From positions 53,567 through 117,566 of the forward strand of contig JAFTYD010000019.1 in the NCBI GenBank assembly GCA_017464845.1: a stretch of 64,000 nucleotides of DNA. The letters are read 5' to 3'. This document shows positions 4,652 to 11,256 of this stretch, piece by piece. The notes under the pieces are model-generated. The model had not been told where the DNA came from. It saw only the letters and a list, made by a program, of their open reading frames with translations, and did no database searches. The DNA is from Clostridia bacterium. Lineage in GTDB: Bacteria > Bacillota > Clostridia > Christensenellales > UBA1242. Both the position numbers and the translations under genes were made by a program. Numbering within the stretch: position 1 is the first letter of the stretch; every line of letters starts with the position of its first letter.

Positions 4652-5350
4652 TTACCTCGTAAAATATTTATCAATATAAAATTTATTCCAAGCTGTTGAT
4701 GTTGTATCAGGACAAACCATAAATACTAATTTATCTTTTGAAACAGGATGAACAAAATTCACCTTTCCAGCCCATAAACTCATATTATTTGAAAAGTTTT
4801 TAACATTTTTATTATATTTTGCATCACCACAAATTGGTAAACCAATATTAGAAAGTTGAACCCTAATTTGATGACTTCTACCTGTTTTTATTTGAATTTC
4901 AAGCAAACTTTCCTTTCCATTTGTTTCAAGAAGTTTATATTCAAGTTCAGCTTTTTTTGCTCCACTCTCTAATGCTGGCACAATAGTTACTTTATTAGTC
5001 TTTGAATCTTTTTTCAAATAATTCACAAGTACACCTGTTTTTTGTTTTGGAACACCATCAACTATTGCATAGTAAGTTTTATGAAAAGTATTATCTTTTA
5101 ATTGTTCACAAAGTCTATTTGCAGATTTTGATGTTCTTGCAAATACAACAATACCTCCTGTCGGTCTATCAAGTCTTTGAACCATACCAATATATGCTTC
5201 ACCTTTCTTTTCATACTTAACTTTCACATATTCTTTTACCATACTAAGAAGATCTTTATCTTTTGATTCATCTGCTTGCGTTGGAATATTATGTGGTTTT
5301 ATCACAACTATTATTTGATTATCTTCATATAAAACATTTAAATTTTCCAT
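4652..5350 (-). CDS. RluA-family pseudouridine synthase
   Basis: Motifs VQRLDRPTGG and GRSHQIRVQL. There is no S4 domain, and the length is 232 aa. Confidence 0.85.
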   Translation of the reverse strand: MENLNVLYEDNQIIVVIKPHNIPTQADESKDKDLLSMVKEYVKVKYEKKGEAYIGMVQRLDRPTGGIVVFARTSKSANRLCEQLKDNTFHKTYYAIVDGVPKQKTGVLVNYLKKDSKTNKVTIVPALESGAKKAELEYKLLETNGKESLLEIQIKTGRSHQIRVQLSNIGLPICGDAKYNKNVKNFSNNMSLWAGKVNFVHPVSKDKLVFMVCPDTTSTAWNKFYIDKYFTR

Positions 5351-5537: not shown

Positions 5538-6386
5538 TTAATTCCAAAATTTAAAACCTGATGCTCCACAAGGAAGAACTAGTCCATCATTTGTTGGTAG
5601 CCCTATTTCATCAGCTTCAACATTATCTAAACCAAAATAAGATTTCAAAATATTAGAAATAACAGTAGGTTGAAGTCCTGTTGTATATGAATTAATAAGA
5701 ACAAACAAAGGTTTATCAGAAAGAACTTTTGAAGCAAGTTCAACAAAATCTGCAAGGTTGTCTTCAAGTTTCCACATTTCACCACTTGGACCTCTACCAT
5801 AACTTGGTGGATCCATAATGATAGCATCATAAAAACTTCCTCTTCTTATTTCTCTTTCAATAAATTTTTTACAATCATCAACAATATATCTAATTGTTGT
5901 AATATTATTTAATTTTGCGTTTTGTCTTGCTCTTTCAACCATACCTTTACTTGCATCAACATGAGTAACCTTTGCGCCTGCATTGGCACAAGCAACAGAA
6001 GCTCCACCTGTGTATGCAAATAAATTTAAAACTTTAATTTCTCTATTAGCATTCTTTATTAAATCTTCCATTATCTCCCAGTTAACTACTTGTTCTGGAA
6101 AAAGTCCGGTATGTTTAAATCCCATAGGTTTTATAATAAATTTTAAATTTTTCCAAGAAATTATCCATTCTTCAGGAATTGAATTAAGATACTTCCATCT
6201 TCCACCACCACTACTTTCTCTCAAGTAATGAGCATCTATATTTGGAAAACTTAATAAATTCTTTTTAGCATGCCAAATAACTTGTGGATCTGGTCTAAGT
6301 AAAGTAATTCTACCCCACTTTTCTAATTTTTCTCCATCTCCTGTAGAGATTACTTTATAATCTGTCCAAGAATTCGCTATTCTCAA
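5538..6386 (-). CDS. class I SAM-dependent (rRNA-type, RlmI/RlmK-like) methyltransferase
   Basis: SAM-binding motif LNLFAYTGGASV and the DPPSYGRG motif typical of the PF10672-type methyltransferases. Confidence 0.75.
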   Translation of the reverse strand: MRIANSWTDYKVISTGDGEKLEKWGRITLLRPDPQVIWHAKKNLLSFPNIDAHYLRESSGGGRWKYLNSIPEEWIISWKNLKFIIKPMGFKHTGLFPEQVVNWEIMEDLIKNANREIKVLNLFAYTGGASVACANAGAKVTHVDASKGMVERARQNAKLNNITTIRYIVDDCKKFIEREIRRGSFYDAIIMDPPSYGRGPSGEMWKLEDNLADFVELASKVLSDKPLFVLINSYTTGLQPTVISNILKSYFGLDNVEADEIGLPTNDGLVLPCGASGFKFWN

Positions 6387-6390
6387 TTTT

Positions 6391-9300
6391 TTACACCTTT
6401 TTTATATAAATTTCAATAGTTTTTCCATTATTTTCAAGTTGAGTAACAAAATCACCTTTTCCATCAAAATTAACTTCATCACACAAAGTATCTTTTTGAA
6501 TTACATTTTTATAATTTTCAATTACAACTTTTGTTTCATCATCACAGTTAAATGAAATAACAATATGATTAACAACTTCAAAACCACTTTCTTTTCTTAA
6601 GTTTTGAACTTTACTTACTACTTCTCTCACAAAACCTTTTTCTAAAAGTTCTTGAGTTAAGTTTGTATCAAGTACTAATGTTATTTCACCATCACTTTCA
6701 GAAGAATAACCTTCTCTGTTTTTAACAGAAATCAACAAATCTTCTTCGCTTAATTCAACTTGTGTTCCATCAACTTCAAATTTTAAGTTTTCGCCATTTC
6801 TAACATTCTTAACTGTTGAAACTGGTTCAACATTTGCTAAAAATTCTTTAATTTTTCCTAATAATTTACCATATTTTGGACCAATTGTCTTTAATTGTGG
6901 TTTAATTTCATAACTTACATAATCAGAAGCATCATGTAAAATTACTAAATCTTCAACATTTAATTCGTCTTTAATAAGGTTTTGCAATTCTTCTTCAAGT
7001 TCTAATTTATTTGCAGTACAAACAATAGCTTTTGAAAGAGGTTGTCTATTTTTTACACCACAATTACTTCTACTTGCTCTACCAAGTACAACAATTTTTA
7101 AAACTTTGTCCATTCCTTCATTTAATTTTCCATCAATCATAGATTCATCACATTCTGGATAAGAGCAAAGATGAACACTTTCTGGAGCATTTGCATCAAC
7201 ACTTCTTACTAAATTTTGATAAATTTTTTCACTAATAAAAGGAACAAATGGAGCAACAAGTTTTATTGTTCCAACCAAAACTTCATATAATGTTTTGTAA
7301 GCTGAAATCTTATCATCTGTTTGTTCACTTCCCCAGAATCTTTCTCTACTTCTTCTTACGTACCAGTTAGATAAAGTATCAACAAAATCTGTGATAATTC
7401 TTGCTGGAGTTAACATATCATATTTTTCTAAACATTCTGTAACTTTCTTAACAAGAGCATTATATTCTGACAATAACCACTTATCAAAGAAAGATAATTT
7501 ACAATCTTTAAGATCATATTTTGTTGGGTCAAATTGATCAATTTCTGCATAAAGCACATAGAAAGCATAAATATTCCATAATGTACCCATAAATTTTCTT
7601 TGAAGTTCTATAAGATTGTCTTCATTAAATGACATACTTTGTCCAGGATTACATGAATAATAGAAATACCATCTAAGAGCATCTGAACCTTCTTTATTTA
7701 AAATGTCCCAAGGATCAATACCATTTCCTTTAGATTTGCTCATTTTTTGACCAAATCTATCATTAATAAGACCTAAAGCTGTACAAGATTTATATGGTGA
7801 TTTACCAAAAAGAATTGTATTAATTGCAATTAAAACATAGAACCAGCCACGAGTTTGGTCAATACCTTCACAGATAAAATCAGATGGGAATGTTTTTTCA
7901 AACAATTCTTTATTTTCAAATGGATAGTGATATTGAGCAAAAGGCATTGAACCAGAGTCAAACCAGCAATCCATAACTTCAGGAGTTCTTTGCATCATCT
8001 TTCCACATTTTTCACAAGGGAAAGTAATTTTATCAAGAGTAGGTTTATGCAAGTCTAAATCCCCTTCAACACCTGACAATTTCTTTAATTCTTCAACACT
8101 ACCAACAACATGAATATGTCCACATTCACAAACCCAGAAAGGTAATGGTGTTCCCCAATATCTATTTCTAGAAATACCCCAGTCAATATTATTTGCAAGG
8201 AAATTACCCATTCTACCACCTTTGATAGTATCAGGAATCCAGTAAACTGAATTATTATTTTCAACCATCAAATCTTTAACTTCAGTTGTTTTAACAAACC
8301 AAGTACTTTTTCCATAATAAAGCAATGGTGTGTTACATCTCCAACAATGTGGATATGAGTGTTCAAATAATAAAACTTTGAACATTTTATTTTCATTTTC
8401 TAATTTTTCAATAACAAACTTGTCTGCTTCCTTAGCACCCATTCCAACAAAATCTGTTGCTTCTTGTGTAAATTTTCCAGCATCATCAATAAGTTGAATG
8501 AAAGTTAAATCATAATTTTTTCCAACTTTATAGTCATCTTCACCAAATGCTGGAGCAATATGAACAATACCTGTACCATCTTCAACAGTTACATAATCAT
8601 CAACAGTAACAAAATAACCATTCTTTACAGTATCTTTTACATAATCAAACAATGGTTCATATTTTTGATATTCAAATTCTTTACCAGTTTTTGAATAAAC
8701 TTCTGTATAAGTACCATCTTCAAATAATTTTGAAACTAAGTTTTTGAGCATGATGTAATTTACACCTTCATATTCAATTTTTACATAAACTTCATTTGGA
8801 TTCATACAAATTGCAATATTTGAAGGTAAAGTCCATGGAGTTGTTGTCCAAACTAAGAAATAAGTATTATCTTCTTCCAAGCTCTTCATTTTAACGAAAA
8901 TACTTTTTTCTTTCAAAACTTTATAATTTTGTTCAACTTCCATTTTAGAAAGAGATGTTCCACATCTTGGACAATAAGGAACAATCTTATGACCTTTATA
9001 GATCAAACCTTTTTTATCCATTTCCTTCAATGCCCAGAAAATACTTTCAATATATTTGTTATCATAAGTAATATATGGATCTTCCATATCAACCCAGTAA
9101 CCAAATCTTTCAGTAATTTCTTCCCACATTCCTTTATATTTCCAAACAGATTGTTTACAAAGTTCAATAAACTTTTCAACACCAAAATTTTCAATATCTT
9201 GTTTACCATTTAAGCCAAGTTGTTTTTCAACTTCAACTTCAACAGGAAGACCATGAGTATCCCAACCTGCTTTTCTTGGAACATAAAAACCTTTCATAGT

Positions 9301-9516
9301 TTTATATCTTGGAATAATATCTTTCATAGCTCTTGTTAAAGGATGTCCAATATGAGGAAGACCATTAGCAGTTGGAGGTCCTTCATAAAAAGAAAAGATT
9401 TGATTTCCTTCATTTTTGTTCAAACTTTTCTTAAAAATATTGTTTTCCTTCCAAAAATTTAATACTTCTTTTTCATTTTTGATAAAATCTAATTTTGAGT
9501 CAACTGATTTATACAT
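6391..9516 (-). CDS. ileS: isoleucine--tRNA ligase, long (type 2-like) form
   Basis: HIGH-type motif (PHIGHPLTR) and KMSKS. I moved the start to the ATG at 9516 (MYKSVDSK...) because a GGGAGG lies 7 nt upstream. The ORF-track start at 9531 contains that RBS. Confidence 0.95.
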   Translation of the reverse strand: MYKSVDSKLDFIKNEKEVLNFWKENNIFKKSLNKNEGNQIFSFYEGPPTANGLPHIGHPLTRAMKDIIPRYKTMKGFYVPRKAGWDTHGLPVEVEVEKQLGLNGKQDIENFGVEKFIELCKQSVWKYKGMWEEITERFGYWVDMEDPYITYDNKYIESIFWALKEMDKKGLIYKGHKIVPYCPRCGTSLSKMEVEQNYKVLKEKSIFVKMKSLEEDNTYFLVWTTTPWTLPSNIAICMNPNEVYVKIEYEGVNYIMLKNLVSKLFEDGTYTEVYSKTGKEFEYQKYEPLFDYVKDTVKNGYFVTVDDYVTVEDGTGIVHIAPAFGEDDYKVGKNYDLTFIQLIDDAGKFTQEATDFVGMGAKEADKFVIEKLENENKMFKVLLFEHSYPHCWRCNTPLLYYGKSTWFVKTTEVKDLMVENNNSVYWIPDTIKGGRMGNFLANNIDWGISRNRYWGTPLPFWVCECGHIHVVGSVEELKKLSGVEGDLDLHKPTLDKITFPCEKCGKMMQRTPEVMDCWFDSGSMPFAQYHYPFENKELFEKTFPSDFICEGIDQTRGWFYVLIAINTILFGKSPYKSCTALGLINDRFGQKMSKSKGNGIDPWDILNKEGSDALRWYFYYSCNPGQSMSFNEDNLIELQRKFMGTLWNIYAFYVLYAEIDQFDPTKYDLKDCKLSFFDKWLLSEYNALVKKVTECLEKYDMLTPARIITDFVDTLSNWYVRRSRERFWGSEQTDDKISAYKTLYEVLVGTIKLVAPFVPFISEKIYQNLVRSVDANAPESVHLCSYPECDESMIDGKLNEGMDKVLKIVVLGRASRSNCGVKNRQPLSKAIVCTANKLELEEELQNLIKDELNVEDLVILHDASDYVSYEIKPQLKTIGPKYGKLLGKIKEFLANVEPVSTVKNVRNGENLKFEVDGTQVELSEEDLLISVKNREGYSSESDGEITLVLDTNLTQELLEKGFVREVVSKVQNLRKESGFEVVNHIVISFNCDDETKVVIENYKNVIQKDTLCDEVNFDGKGDFVTQLENNGKTIEIYIKKV

Positions 9517-9548
9517 AATTTTTCCTCCCATAAAAAATTAGTAAAAAC

Positions 9549-9795
9549 AAAAAAAGCCGTGCAAGTTACAAGAAACCCAACACGGCCATAAAACACCACT
9601 TGTAAACTTATATTGTGCCATCACACAATCGCTTCTATAACGGTAAGCTTCCGACAAGCCTTACTAAATTTCAGGTTGCAACTATGAAAGTGATAATTCT
9701 AAAATCTACTCATTGTCTTACACCAACCGACAATTCTCTTTATGAGTCAACGAAAATTAGAACCGTGTCTTTCGTCATCGTTTTTGTTTTTACAT
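9549..9795 (-). promoter_or_regulatory. T-box leader (Ile specifier) controlling ileS
   Basis: On the reverse strand: an AGAGA and GGUGUAAG stem-I element; a candidate specifier AUC followed by A (plus-strand gat at 9692-9694); a T-box-like AGUGGUG; and a terminator GCCGUG...CACGGC plus U7 (9549-9586) just upstream of the ileS RBS. Confidence 0.75.
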
Positions 9796-9839: not shown

Positions 9840-10571
9840 TTAAGAATTTTCTAATACTTTGTTCATAGTAATAACATCAGATCCAGTTAAAATTCCAAGT
9901 GGTAATTCTCTTGTTCCACCTTTTGCTGTAACAAGTACAACAAGTAGTTTATTGTTTTCTTGGAAAAGTTTTAATGCTTGTTCAACAGTAATAGAAGCAG
10001 GAACAACTTCATAGTAAAGATTATCACTCATATTTTCAAGTAAATTACCGATATTTTGACTATCAAGTAATTCATTTGCATCTTCTTTATTTAAAAGTTC
10101 ATTACCTAGATATTGTAAAATTTTTCTACCATTTGCAACCCCAACTAACTCCTTATCTCTATAAACAGGAATATTTGAATAACCTGAAGAAGATATAAGT
10201 TTTATCATTTCTCTAAGTGTTAATGTACTTTCAGCAGTCAAAACATCTCTCCTACAAACAGTTGCAAGTGCATTTGGTGGTGTTGTCAAAATCTTTTCTA
10301 TTTTTTCTATTTTTTCAACAACTTTAATATGAGGTTCTGCAATTATAAAATCCTCATTATTATGTATAATTGCATTTCTTAATCTTCCGTAATCAATTAA
10401 TTCATCTTCATATTTTCTAATAACATAATTCAAAGCAACAGCTTTTCTGATAAGCTCAGAAAACCCCATACTTCTATTCATATTATATTTTGCTCTAATT
10501 GAATAGTCAATATTGTTGTAAGCAGTTAAAAATCTTTTGGAATTTGAATTATTTTCATCATATTCTTCCAT
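9840..10571 (-). CDS. CBS-pair protein with an N-terminal HEPN-like helical domain
   Basis: The C-terminal ~145 aa is a tandem CBS pair (IPVYRDKELVGVANG ... LVVLVTAKGG...GILTGSDV). The N-terminal ~95 aa is helical and carries LRNAIIH (an R-x4-H motif) at aa 64-70. Confidence 0.6.
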   Translation of the reverse strand: MEEYDENNSNSKRFLTAYNNIDYSIRAKYNMNRSMGFSELIRKAVALNYVIRKYEDELIDYGRLRNAIIHNNEDFIIAEPHIKVVEKIEKIEKILTTPPNALATVCRRDVLTAESTLTLREMIKLISSSGYSNIPVYRDKELVGVANGRKILQYLGNELLNKEDANELLDSQNIGNLLENMSDNLYYEVVPASITVEQALKLFQENNKLLVVLVTAKGGTRELPLGILTGSDVITMNKVLENS

Positions 10572-10673
10572 TAAGACCTCCTTAAAGTAATTATTAATTT
10601 TAGTTTACTCTAAAATTATACAATAATATTCATAAAAAGAAAAATAAATTTTAATGAAATTACCAAAATAAGG

Positions 10674-10708: not shown

Positions 10709-10976
10709 ACTGGGCTAGATGGGATGTTAGCGGTATCCTGTAACCTGCAATCCGCTACAGCAGGATTGACGATTTGCCTCGGTATAAAAAAGTTGAATAT
10801 GAGTATGTAATTTTGGCGTTGAAGTCAAGGTCTTATGCAATCAACACCCTTGAACCATGTCAGATCCTGACGGAAGCAGCATTAAGAGGTCTTGTTGGTG
10901 TGCCATAAGGTAGCTTTGGTGGAGTTAAAATTATGTAAGGCAGTTGGTTTTTTTATAACAAAGCAAGTTGCCCAGT
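10709..10976 (+). ncRNA. ffs: signal recognition particle RNA, long Bacillus-type form with Alu domain
   Basis: Conserved domain IV core GUCAGAUCCUGACGGAAGCAGC. The 5' ACUGGGC pairs with the 3' GCCCAGU. About 268 nt, with its own promoter and terminator. Confidence 0.88.
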
Positions 10977-11058: not shown

Positions 11059-11256
11059 TTATTCTTGTGATTCTGCAGCTTTTTCTTTTTCATTAACTTT
11101 CTTTACTGCTTTTTTGATATTGTCAACTTCTTTTATAACAGCTTGTTCTCCTTTGTTTACAATATCCTTTGTACATTGAGAGTATTTGTACATCAATGCA
11201 CCAGTAACAAGCCCAATACCAAATCCCATAAGCATTGCAAATTCCTTCATATCCAT
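11059..11256 (-). CDS. small membrane-anchored protein (YtxH-like)
   Basis: 65 aa with an N-terminal Gly-rich TM helix (MLMGFGIGLVTGAL) and a charged helical tail. Confidence 0.5.
   Translation of the reverse strand: MDMKEFAMLMGFGIGLVTGALMYKYSQCTKDIVNKGEQAVIKEVDNIKKAVKKVNEKEKAAESQE

Follow-up and report, generated by a model that had tools for sequence, protein, structure and literature searches.

A conserved protein of Clostridia and Enterococcus that joins a probable minimal HEPN domain to a CBS pair in a translation-related gene neighborhood

A gene encoding a probable HEPN-like domain fused to a tandem CBS module was analyzed in a 64,000-nt stretch of DNA (hereafter the window) from a Clostridia bacterium (contig JAFTYD010000019.1 of assembly GCA_017464845.1, positions 53,567 to 117,566 of the forward strand). 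The gene is a complete open reading frame (ORF) on the minus strand (9840..10571; 243 aa plus stop, ATG start), as the initial annotation of this DNA had reported, and a ribosome-binding site, AAGGAGG, can be read from the sequence 5 nt upstream of the ATG (10577..10583). Unless otherwise stated, window features named below are on the minus strand. The N-terminal domain is very probably homologous to HEPN domains of the minimal type, a relationship that is not proven, and the C-terminal part is certainly a standard Bateman module. We consider it moderately probable that the protein is a dimeric, metal-independent HEPN endoribonuclease in which an adenosyl ligand at the second CBS domain (CBS2) would switch a site made of R65, N66, and H70, and that it would act on translation-related RNA in a housekeeping or stress capacity.

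The strongest evidence comes from conservation. The full-length protein has 929 homologues at E<=1e-3, and a profile of the N-terminal domain only returned 892 clusters (50% identity) at the same threshold; among the 150 N-domain matches listed, most are proteins of 230-250 aa that carry it N-terminally. Short matches in the representative search, considered as candidate stand-alone N-domains, are mostly fragments or frameshifted calls. A family alignment was built from the query and 96 cluster representatives (n = 97), the latter being 24-45% identical to the query. Over the full length of this alignment, just six columns never vary (L64, R65, N66, H70, A78, and P80), and A67, I68, and I77 are nearly invariant. 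These residues fall into two blocks. One is L64-R65-N66-A-I-I-H70 (10362..10382), the predicted catalytic Rx4H motif; nt 10362-10379 translate to RNAIIH, i.e., R65-x4-H70, exactly as first noted. The other is I77-A78-E79-P80-H81 (10329..10343), located in the loop between helix 3 and helix 4, in which A78 and P80 are present in 97/97 sequences, I77 in 91/97, E79 in 79/97, and H81 in 65/97. Conservation of R65 and H70 in homologues had been named as a check on the HEPN proposal, and both residues are found in 97/97 representatives. The close homologues, which are ~60% identical over their full length, share the whole G62-R-L-R-N-x-I-x-H70 block without change, and the motif is also kept in members from Enterococcus, Aquisalibacillus, Chlorohelix, and Rhodococcus. 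By our own estimate, an R-x4-H pattern is roughly a 1-in-4 chance event in a single 243-aa sequence, so the motif alone proves nothing, and it is the invariance that exceeds chance. On the basis of this conservation, the RNxxxH block and the IAEP block can be regarded as the functional heart of the family, and the I77-H81 block probably belongs to the active-site surface. Two prolines that join the domains are also well conserved (P98 in 94/97 and P99 in 70/97; 10275..10280).

With regard to the identity of the N-terminal domain (aa ~8-97; 10281..10550), standard annotation was uninformative. Pfam detected only PF00571 in the query and left aa 1-100 unmatched, the NCBIfam scan of the protein gave weak CBS-type matches only, and the PADLOC scan of the protein gave no match. 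The domain was modeled by AlphaFold2 with good confidence (pLDDT 89.3, pTM 0.82). The modeled helices span residues 10-29 (helix 1), 37-44 (helix 2), 49-53 (a short insert), 55-68 (helix 3), and 82-96 (helix 4); the only exception to helical structure over aa 10-96 is a short beta-bridge at 69-77, and a Bateman-type alpha/beta module follows. The helical N-terminal domain of ~95 aa proposed in the initial annotation is therefore borne out by the model over aa 10-96. R65 and N66 close helix 3, and H70 opens the following loop. HEPN domains have been defined as four-helix up-down bundles with an Rx4-6H motif, in which R is followed by a polar residue (commonly N, H, or D), with an acidic residue in helix 2 when present and with inserts between helices 2 and 3 (Anantharaman et al. 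2013, PMC3710099). The predicted topology of the N-domain and the position of its motif fit this definition, and the pattern R65-N66-x3-H70 agrees with Rx4-6H in 97/97 sequences. Helix 2 carries E or D at position 39 in 53/97 sequences and Q in 12/97, the E being invariant in the close clade.

Remote similarity to HEPN families was also detected at the sequence level. When 44 N-domains were scanned singly against Pfam, all matches lay under the gathering scores, the most frequent being PF18735 (RiboL-PSP-HEPN), which was found in 28/44 domains (best E 1.3e-4; 11-17 bits versus a cut-off of 28.4). This family is distantly related to AbiF and AbiD (Anantharaman et al. 2013). Other HEPN families were matched less often (HepT-like in 13/44, Cthe_2314-like in 5/44, and Apea-like in 4/44). 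Outside the HEPN-named families, matches were obtained to DUF6548 and to DUF3644 (6/44), and any other family was matched by no more than two of the 44. The Pfam HEPN alignments span residues ~10-95. As a control, each N-domain was shuffled on either side of a fixed LRNxxxH and then rescanned, after which PF18735 and DUF3644 were each matched by one of the 44 sequences, and HepT-like, Cthe_2314-like, Apea-like, and DUF6548 by none. Because the matches collapse when the flanks are shuffled and the motif is kept, the HEPN similarity runs through the whole domain. DUF6548 (PF20185) was itself matched by 12/44 N-domains with a best E of 1.1e-4, and this family may be an unrecognized relative of the HEPN-like N-domain.

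A search of the N-domain profile against the sequences of the PDB pointed in the same direction. HepT (SO_3166; 6m6w, 5yep, and 6m6u) occupied ranks 1-3 of 177,635 sequences, with profile positions 7-83 aligned and LRNaivH placed over LRNIAVH (E 0.37-0.69). HepT (PF01934) is a minimal four-helix HEPN protein of ~130 aa, a type to which the N-domain probably belongs as well, and its catalytic LRNIAVH aligns with LRNAIVH at E about 0.4. HepT is described as a dimeric RNase in the part of PMC7701990 that cites Jia et al. 2018. The two differ in their mode of control: HepT is under an adjacent MNT antitoxin, whereas the window protein has a fused CBS pair in the regulatory position, and no MNT-like ORF lies beside its gene, whose neighbors are the T-box/ileS unit and the signal recognition particle (SRP) RNA.

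Several observations weigh against the HEPN assignment. The helix-2 acidic residue is conserved only in part, no HEPN Pfam match attains its gathering score, and the HepT match in the PDB is weak (E 0.37-0.69). A Foldseek search with the N-domain model found no HEPN or other structure, the best E being 3.5 in the PDB and 2.6 in BFVD. In addition, when the 97 N-domains were compared by hhalign with the HEPN domains of the DS-11 family, a defense family discussed below, only 20 columns at the motif were aligned (probability 0.9%, P 0.058). Small all-helical bundles are expected to be a weak case for Foldseek, and, as a control, hmmscan proved blind also to the DS-11 HEPN domain, in which experiments have shown the catalytic R and H to be necessary. 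Full-length Foldseek and a full-length PDB sequence search were swamped by CBS pairs and were uninformative on the N-domain. The HEPN claim of the initial annotation consequently stands in part: the invariant RNxxxH, the topology, and a weak but shuffle-controlled profile similarity speak for it, while the fold similarity that it had called for was absent from the Foldseek results even with a confident model (best E 3.5), and curated thresholds were not reached.

The C-terminal ~145 residues (aa ~100-243; 9843..10274) raise no such doubt. PF00571 matches them in two stretches (E 1.7e-12, 47.9 bits versus a cut-off of 24) and also matches 95/97 family members. Foldseek aligned the module at probability 1.0 with the CBS pairs of CorC/CNNM, AcuB, CbpB/DarB, AMPK-gamma, and IMPDH (E 6.5e-7 to 1e-5), and the family profile matches MJ1225 at E 3e-29. 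The tandem CBS domain originally proposed is confirmed by both the double Pfam match and the structural search. The sequence G-h-h-T/S-x-x-D is the canonical ribose-phosphate-binding motif of CBS domains. It is represented in CBS2 by G226-I-L-T229-G-S-D232 (9876..9896), with G226 kept in 70/97 sequences, T229 in 85/97, and D232 in 88/97, while the equivalent motif in the first CBS domain (CBS1) is without the Asp. Because CBS2 keeps the ribose-phosphate motif and CBS1 does not, one functional site is suggested, and the CBS2 motif probably marks a single predicted adenosyl-ligand site.

The genomic setting of the gene is that of core housekeeping functions. The window has a GC content of 26.9%, and the neighborhood includes ileS, iscU/iscS, thioredoxin, hslUV, topA, and rplS; no defense genes were found in the 26-kb neighborhood within the window. 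The flanking elements named in the initial annotation were confirmed. Immediately downstream is the T-box leader of ileS (9566..9787; RF00230, 57.6 bits, E 1.6e-11, model positions 1-219 of 219), which is followed by ileS itself (6391..9531; NCBIfam TIGR00392, 953 bits), encoding a type-2, MupA/MupB-like isoleucyl-tRNA synthetase (IleRS). Further along the same strand are genes for an RlmI/RlmK-like S-adenosylmethionine (SAM)-dependent RNA methyltransferase (5538..6386; PF10672 at E 2.6e-15 and NCBIfam matches) and an RluA-family pseudouridine synthase (4652..5350; PF00849, E 5.6e-33). On the other side lies the SRP RNA of the large bacterial type (10710..10975, plus strand; RF01854, 158.7 bits), a divergent upstream neighbor that provides context only.

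The association with ileS was followed in a set of 80 genome loci of close relatives (53-62% identity), all of them metagenome-assembled genomes of uncultured gut Clostridia. Three of these loci are uninformative in that the contig ends within 230 nt of the gene; in the remaining 77/77, ileS is directly downstream on the same strand. Two arrangements were observed. In one, the gap to ileS is ~250-950 nt, and in 5/5 tested loci it holds a T-box that begins ~60 nt past the stop codon. In the other, the gap is -4 to 44 nt, as found in 11 relatives, and no T-box was found anywhere in 6/6 scanned loci of this kind (L002, L007, L016, L021, L072, and L076). The small-gap loci are plain operons. Because the gene abuts or overlaps ileS and the T-box is absent, ileS in the six scanned loci has lost T-box control and is presumably co-transcribed with the HEPN-CBS gene. 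A T-box preceding the HEPN-CBS gene in the no-gap relatives was also considered and was rejected, the scanned loci being without any T-box. In the window, the T-box begins 52 nt past the HEPN-CBS stop codon, and no intrinsic terminator was found between the two. The description of the gene as monocistronic in the initial annotation is thus unsupported, since no terminator separates the stop codon from the T-box/ileS unit, and in the 11 small-gap relatives the gene runs almost directly into ileS. The SRP RNA is a less constant neighbor: by single-sequence nhmmer, it is adjacent to the HEPN-CBS gene in 26/80 relatives only, and its orientation varies.

A wider set combined the 80 genome loci with 80 metagenome loci down to 36% identity, of which 138 were informative. 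The first downstream gene on the same strand is ileS in 110 loci, an RlmI/RlmK-like methyltransferase gene in 11, and an RluA-family synthase gene in six, together 127/138, and this synteny is stable down to ~38% identity. The linkage certainly shows vertical, core-genome inheritance, and it is no proof of a functional tie to IleRS.

Family membership extends beyond Clostridia. A tblastn search of a phage collection gave two matches only, both in bacterial contigs filed under phage names, and no genuine phage copy was found in that collection. The two mislabeled GenBank records are OR849199.1, "Listeria phage LM 4-14-1" (L161), and OR846607.1, "Enterococcus phage Efs 1-1-1" (L162), both from wastewater and flagged UNVERIFIED_ORG; they are pieces of bacterial chromosome with lspA-rluD-pyrR-pyrP-pyrB-pyrC. 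The gene order in one contig is fhs, HEPN-CBS (234 aa), lspA, rluD, pyrR, pyrP, pyrB, and pyrC, and that in the other is HEPN-CBS, lspA, and rluD. The contig with fhs matches Enterococcus faecalis EF1725 (fhs), EF1724 ("CBS domain-containing protein", 704 nt), and EF1723 (lspA). EF1724 encodes a protein of 234 aa with both LRNAIVH and IAEP and with 28.5% identity over 93% of the query (E 2e-16), by which sequence comparison it is shown to be a family member. An orthologue in Listeria monocytogenes, as suggested by the "Listeria phage" contig, was rejected, for lmo1845 is a purine permease; the gene order of that contig also differs from that of L. monocytogenes. The surroundings of EF1724 are unlike those of the window gene in that its immediate neighbors are fhs and lspA rather than the SRP RNA and ileS; it is nevertheless close to both lspA and rluD, and the E. 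faecalis RluD, whose gene is the second after EF1724, has a match in the pseudouridine-synthase gene at 82 other loci. We place the gene in the ileS-lspA-rluD block, which is ancient, as known from Bacillus subtilis and Escherichia coli. A transposon sequencing (Tn-seq) study in plain broth put EF1724 in the "Fitness Important" class, counted it among the enterococcal core genes without a known function, and reported no orthologue in Staphylococcus aureus or Streptococcus pneumoniae (PMC7701990).

Other findings weigh against a purely housekeeping role, or against reading too much into the gene order. Synteny among related lineages can mirror shared ancestry in the ileS-lspA-rluD block rather than function. 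The Tn-seq phenotype of EF1724 may be a polar effect on lspA; because the stop codon of EF1724 overlaps the start of this essential gene, polarity may contribute to it. The link to the ileS block is absent in Aquisalibacillus elongatus, where the gene is found elsewhere and is followed by a 6-phosphogluconate-dehydrogenase (6PGDH)-like gene. In addition, two distant members with intact LRNxxxH are plasmid-borne, one on a Chlorohelix plasmid (L163 4974-5681) and one on a Rhodococcus conjugative plasmid (L164 5007-5753), amid genes for a DNA methyltransferase, an HNH endonuclease, a Uma2 endonuclease, and a DEAD helicase. Because these two members sit among such genes, the family is not purely housekeeping, and this hints at a genetic-conflict role for some of its branches. 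As a separate observation, a 6PGDH-like gene immediately follows the HEPN-CBS gene both in A. elongatus (L165 7719-8567) and on the Chlorohelix plasmid (L163 5745-6695); the two are 31% identical, and the pairing occurs in 0/160 Clostridia or metagenome loci.

The combination of HEPN and CBS domains is not without precedent. The initial annotation knew of no characterized example, yet a function as ligand-responsive RNases was predicted for HEPN-CBS fusions in 2013 (Anantharaman et al. 2013, PMC3710099), and DS-11 was validated in 2026. DS-11 (WP_000257686.1, from E. coli and Klebsiella) is a one-protein CBS+HEPN anti-phage system reported with DefensePredictor (Science 2026, PMC13092281), in which the mutations R330A and H335A in the HEPN domain and Y157A in the CBS pair abolish defense (PMC13092281). 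For comparison, its sequence was taken from the supplement of PMC13092281, and a family alignment of 118 HEPN domains was built. Like DS-11, the window protein has a CBS pair and an Rx4H HEPN domain in one polypeptide, with near-identical motifs (RIIRNDVMH in DS-11 and GRLRNAIIH in the window protein). The CBS pairs align with an hhalign probability of 98.7%, and the proposed logic, an adenine derivative on the CBS pair controlling a dimeric HEPN RNase, is the same. The domain order, on the other hand, is reversed: DS-11 consists of an N-terminal extension, the CBS pair (134-241), and the HEPN domain (~245-365), whereas in the window protein HEPN (8-97) precedes CBS (100-243). The proteins also differ in size (365 aa for DS-11 versus 243 aa) and in context, DS-11 being an accessory gene of Proteobacteria and the window family a syntenic core gene of Clostridia and Enterococcus. 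For the N-domain, BLASTP and hhalign against DS-11, with the single sequence and with the family profile, aligned the motif only and gave no significance. The window family is therefore an independent or very distant realization of the DS-11 design, with opposite polarity and in a housekeeping context.

The fusions described in 2013 include HEPN-CBS(-HD) proteins such as alr3009 and the Pelobacter propionicus protein gi 118580987, which belong to the Abi2/Swt1 assemblage (Anantharaman et al. 2013). They resemble the present family in being computationally predicted HEPN+CBS architectures with an "active" Rx4-6H motif; compared by description only, they differ in their origin from Cyanobacteria and Deltaproteobacteria and in sometimes carrying an HD domain. 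With the CARF-HEPN proteins Csm6 and Csx1, the likeness is one of logic only, i.e., a sensor of a nucleotide ligand fused to a dimeric HEPN RNase. These proteins use a Rossmann-like CARF sensor rather than a Bateman module, respond to cyclic oligoadenylate, and occur in CRISPR contexts. No CARF, Csm6, or Csx1 match was obtained in Pfam, NCBIfam, or PADLOC, no fold match to them was found, and the neighborhood contains no cas genes.

A ligand-gated RNase would be the most reasonable mechanism on the sequence evidence, because the CBS pair is certain and the HEPN domain very probable. HEPN and CBS modules both normally dimerize. The protein has two domains and is predicted to be cytoplasmic, and its dimerization would unite two Rx4H motifs in one composite, metal-independent endoribonuclease site. 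An adenosine-containing ligand of the AMP, ADP, ATP, SAM, Ap4A, or c-di-AMP class would then enter the CBS cleft, and its binding may re-orient the HEPN domains and thereby turn RNA cleavage on or off. In the cell, the protein may act as a housekeeping or stress-responsive RNase that makes the processing or turnover of translation-related RNA depend on the nucleotide or energy state of the cell. Such a role, rather than that of a phage-defense toxin, is suggested because the gene is a core gene in a block with ileS, lspA in some cases, and genes for an rRNA methyltransferase and a pseudouridine synthase, and because it is presumably co-transcribed with ileS in some genomes. Dimerization, RNase activity, ligand gating, and the kind of substrate are what we infer here from domain architecture and gene context.

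Three other explanations were weighed against this one. The protein could be a DS-11-type effector of phage defense or abortive infection. Its CBS pair would then recognize an adenine derivative linked to infection and set free a toxic HEPN RNase, so that the mechanism would be the same and the role one of conflict. Bacterial HEPN domains are overwhelmingly toxins or defense effectors (PMC3710099), the domain pair is that of a validated defense protein, and the Chlorohelix and Rhodococcus members lie beside DNA methyltransferase, HNH, Uma2, and DEAD helicase genes. These points are countered by the stable synteny of 127/138 loci to ~38% identity and by the status of EF1724 as an enterococcal core gene that is fitness-important in plain broth. 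The PADLOC scan was blank, the phage collection held no genuine copy, and the 26-kb neighborhood is without defense genes; moreover, the domain order is reversed relative to DS-11, and its HEPN domain shows no significant profile similarity to the N-domain. We regard a defense role as unlikely, although it deserves the most weight of the three. Next to it, and unlikely as well, is the idea that the N-domain is HEPN-derived or HEPN-like and does not cleave, binding instead an RNA or protein partner after the model of MtlR or Swt1, so that the whole protein would be a CBS-controlled regulator. Non-catalytic HEPN domains do exist (PMC3710099 Table 1), the helix-2 acidic residue is partly conserved, the closest CBS structures include CbpB/DarB and AcuB, which are protein-binding regulators made of CBS domains only, and family members carry JGI and UniRef labels such as "predicted transcriptional regulator" or "putative transcriptional regulator". 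However, inactive HEPN families have typically lost the R or the H, whereas R65, N66, and H70 are here kept in 97/97 sequences; no helix-turn-helix or other DNA-binding family was matched in the Pfam and NCBIfam scans, and the label is, in our view, inherited from CBS-containing COGs rather than based on evidence.

The last explanation, to which we give the lowest probability, is that the N-domain is unrelated to HEPN and represents a new helical domain whose LRNAIVH/IAEP surface serves another chemistry or binding function, the Rx4H pattern being convergent or coincidental. The failure of Foldseek to return a HEPN structure for a confident model, the position of all HEPN model matches under curated thresholds together with the E of about 0.4 for HepT in the PDB, and the lack of a significant hhalign match to the HEPN domain of DS-11 would all be expected in that case. 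Against it, the shuffle control indicates that the weak HEPN similarity is domain-wide, several distinct HEPN-named families were matched while, beyond DUF6548 and DUF3644, none was matched more than twice among 44, and the top PDB sequence belongs to a HEPN RNase and aligns in register over the four helices. The motif occupies the place in the predicted topology that the HEPN definition assigns to it, and the negative searches lose force in that hmmscan likewise misses the DS-11 HEPN domain and Foldseek is expected to be weak on small helical bundles. The reading as a ligand-gated HEPN RNase with a housekeeping or stress role is therefore preferred.

Some further features of the region were recorded. 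In this Clostridia clade, the ileS T-boxes cover the whole model (positions 1-219) and score only 57-69 bits; because this is under the Rfam gathering score of 93, as is the 57.6 bits of the T-box in the window, default annotation would miss them. Those of the relatives were located at L001 6768-6983, L006 6770-6982, L015 6766-6981, L027 6766-6977, and L037 6797-7015. The IleRS (6391-9531) obtained its best NCBIfam scores with MupB (1013 bits) and MupA (986 bits), both under the 1900-bit cut-offs, and its long type-2 sequence points to a naturally mupirocin-insensitive enzyme class. The SRP RNA is divergent in the window and in most relatives, while in five (L060, L068, L072, L076, and L079) it is co-oriented and immediately upstream. 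An ORF of 65 aa (11059-11256) sits between the SRP RNA and iscU; its product is hydrophobic in an N-terminal segment, has a tail rich in lysine and glutamate, and matched no Pfam family.

The HEPN-CBS concept has already been published; a HEPN-CBS family of the core genome, with a fitness-important member in E. faecalis, is as yet unexplored. In the literature consulted, bacterial HEPN RNases have been studied almost only as toxins and immune effectors, the ligand-gated cases being the CARF-HEPN proteins and, since 2026, DS-11, and no bacterial HEPN ribonuclease with an established role outside conflict is known to us. A widespread fusion in the reverse order (at least 892 clusters, with a probable HEPN domain) would mean that the CBS-HEPN design is not confined to defense. 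In practical terms, the N-domain is modeled by neither Pfam nor NCBIfam, and the family alignment could serve to construct a new HEPN family model; the 243-aa protein offers a tractable model for the control of a HEPN active site by a Bateman module; and a candidate function is provided for EF1724 and for proteins labeled only "CBS domain-containing protein" or "predicted transcriptional regulator". As a more tentative proposal, which we think possible rather than probable, the family including EF1724 may be a non-conflict, core-genome bacterial HEPN ribonuclease. Its CBS pair would sense adenylate or energy status or some related nucleotide signal, and its substrate would be RNA of the translation apparatus (rRNA precursors, tRNA, or the leader or transcript of ileS); the gene would have been inherited together with ileS and the genes for an rRNA methyltransferase and an RluD-type synthase since before the Clostridia/Bacilli split. 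If this is true, the family would be a bacterial counterpart of eukaryotic HEPN enzymes with housekeeping functions, such as Las1, and would have a metabolic switch built in.

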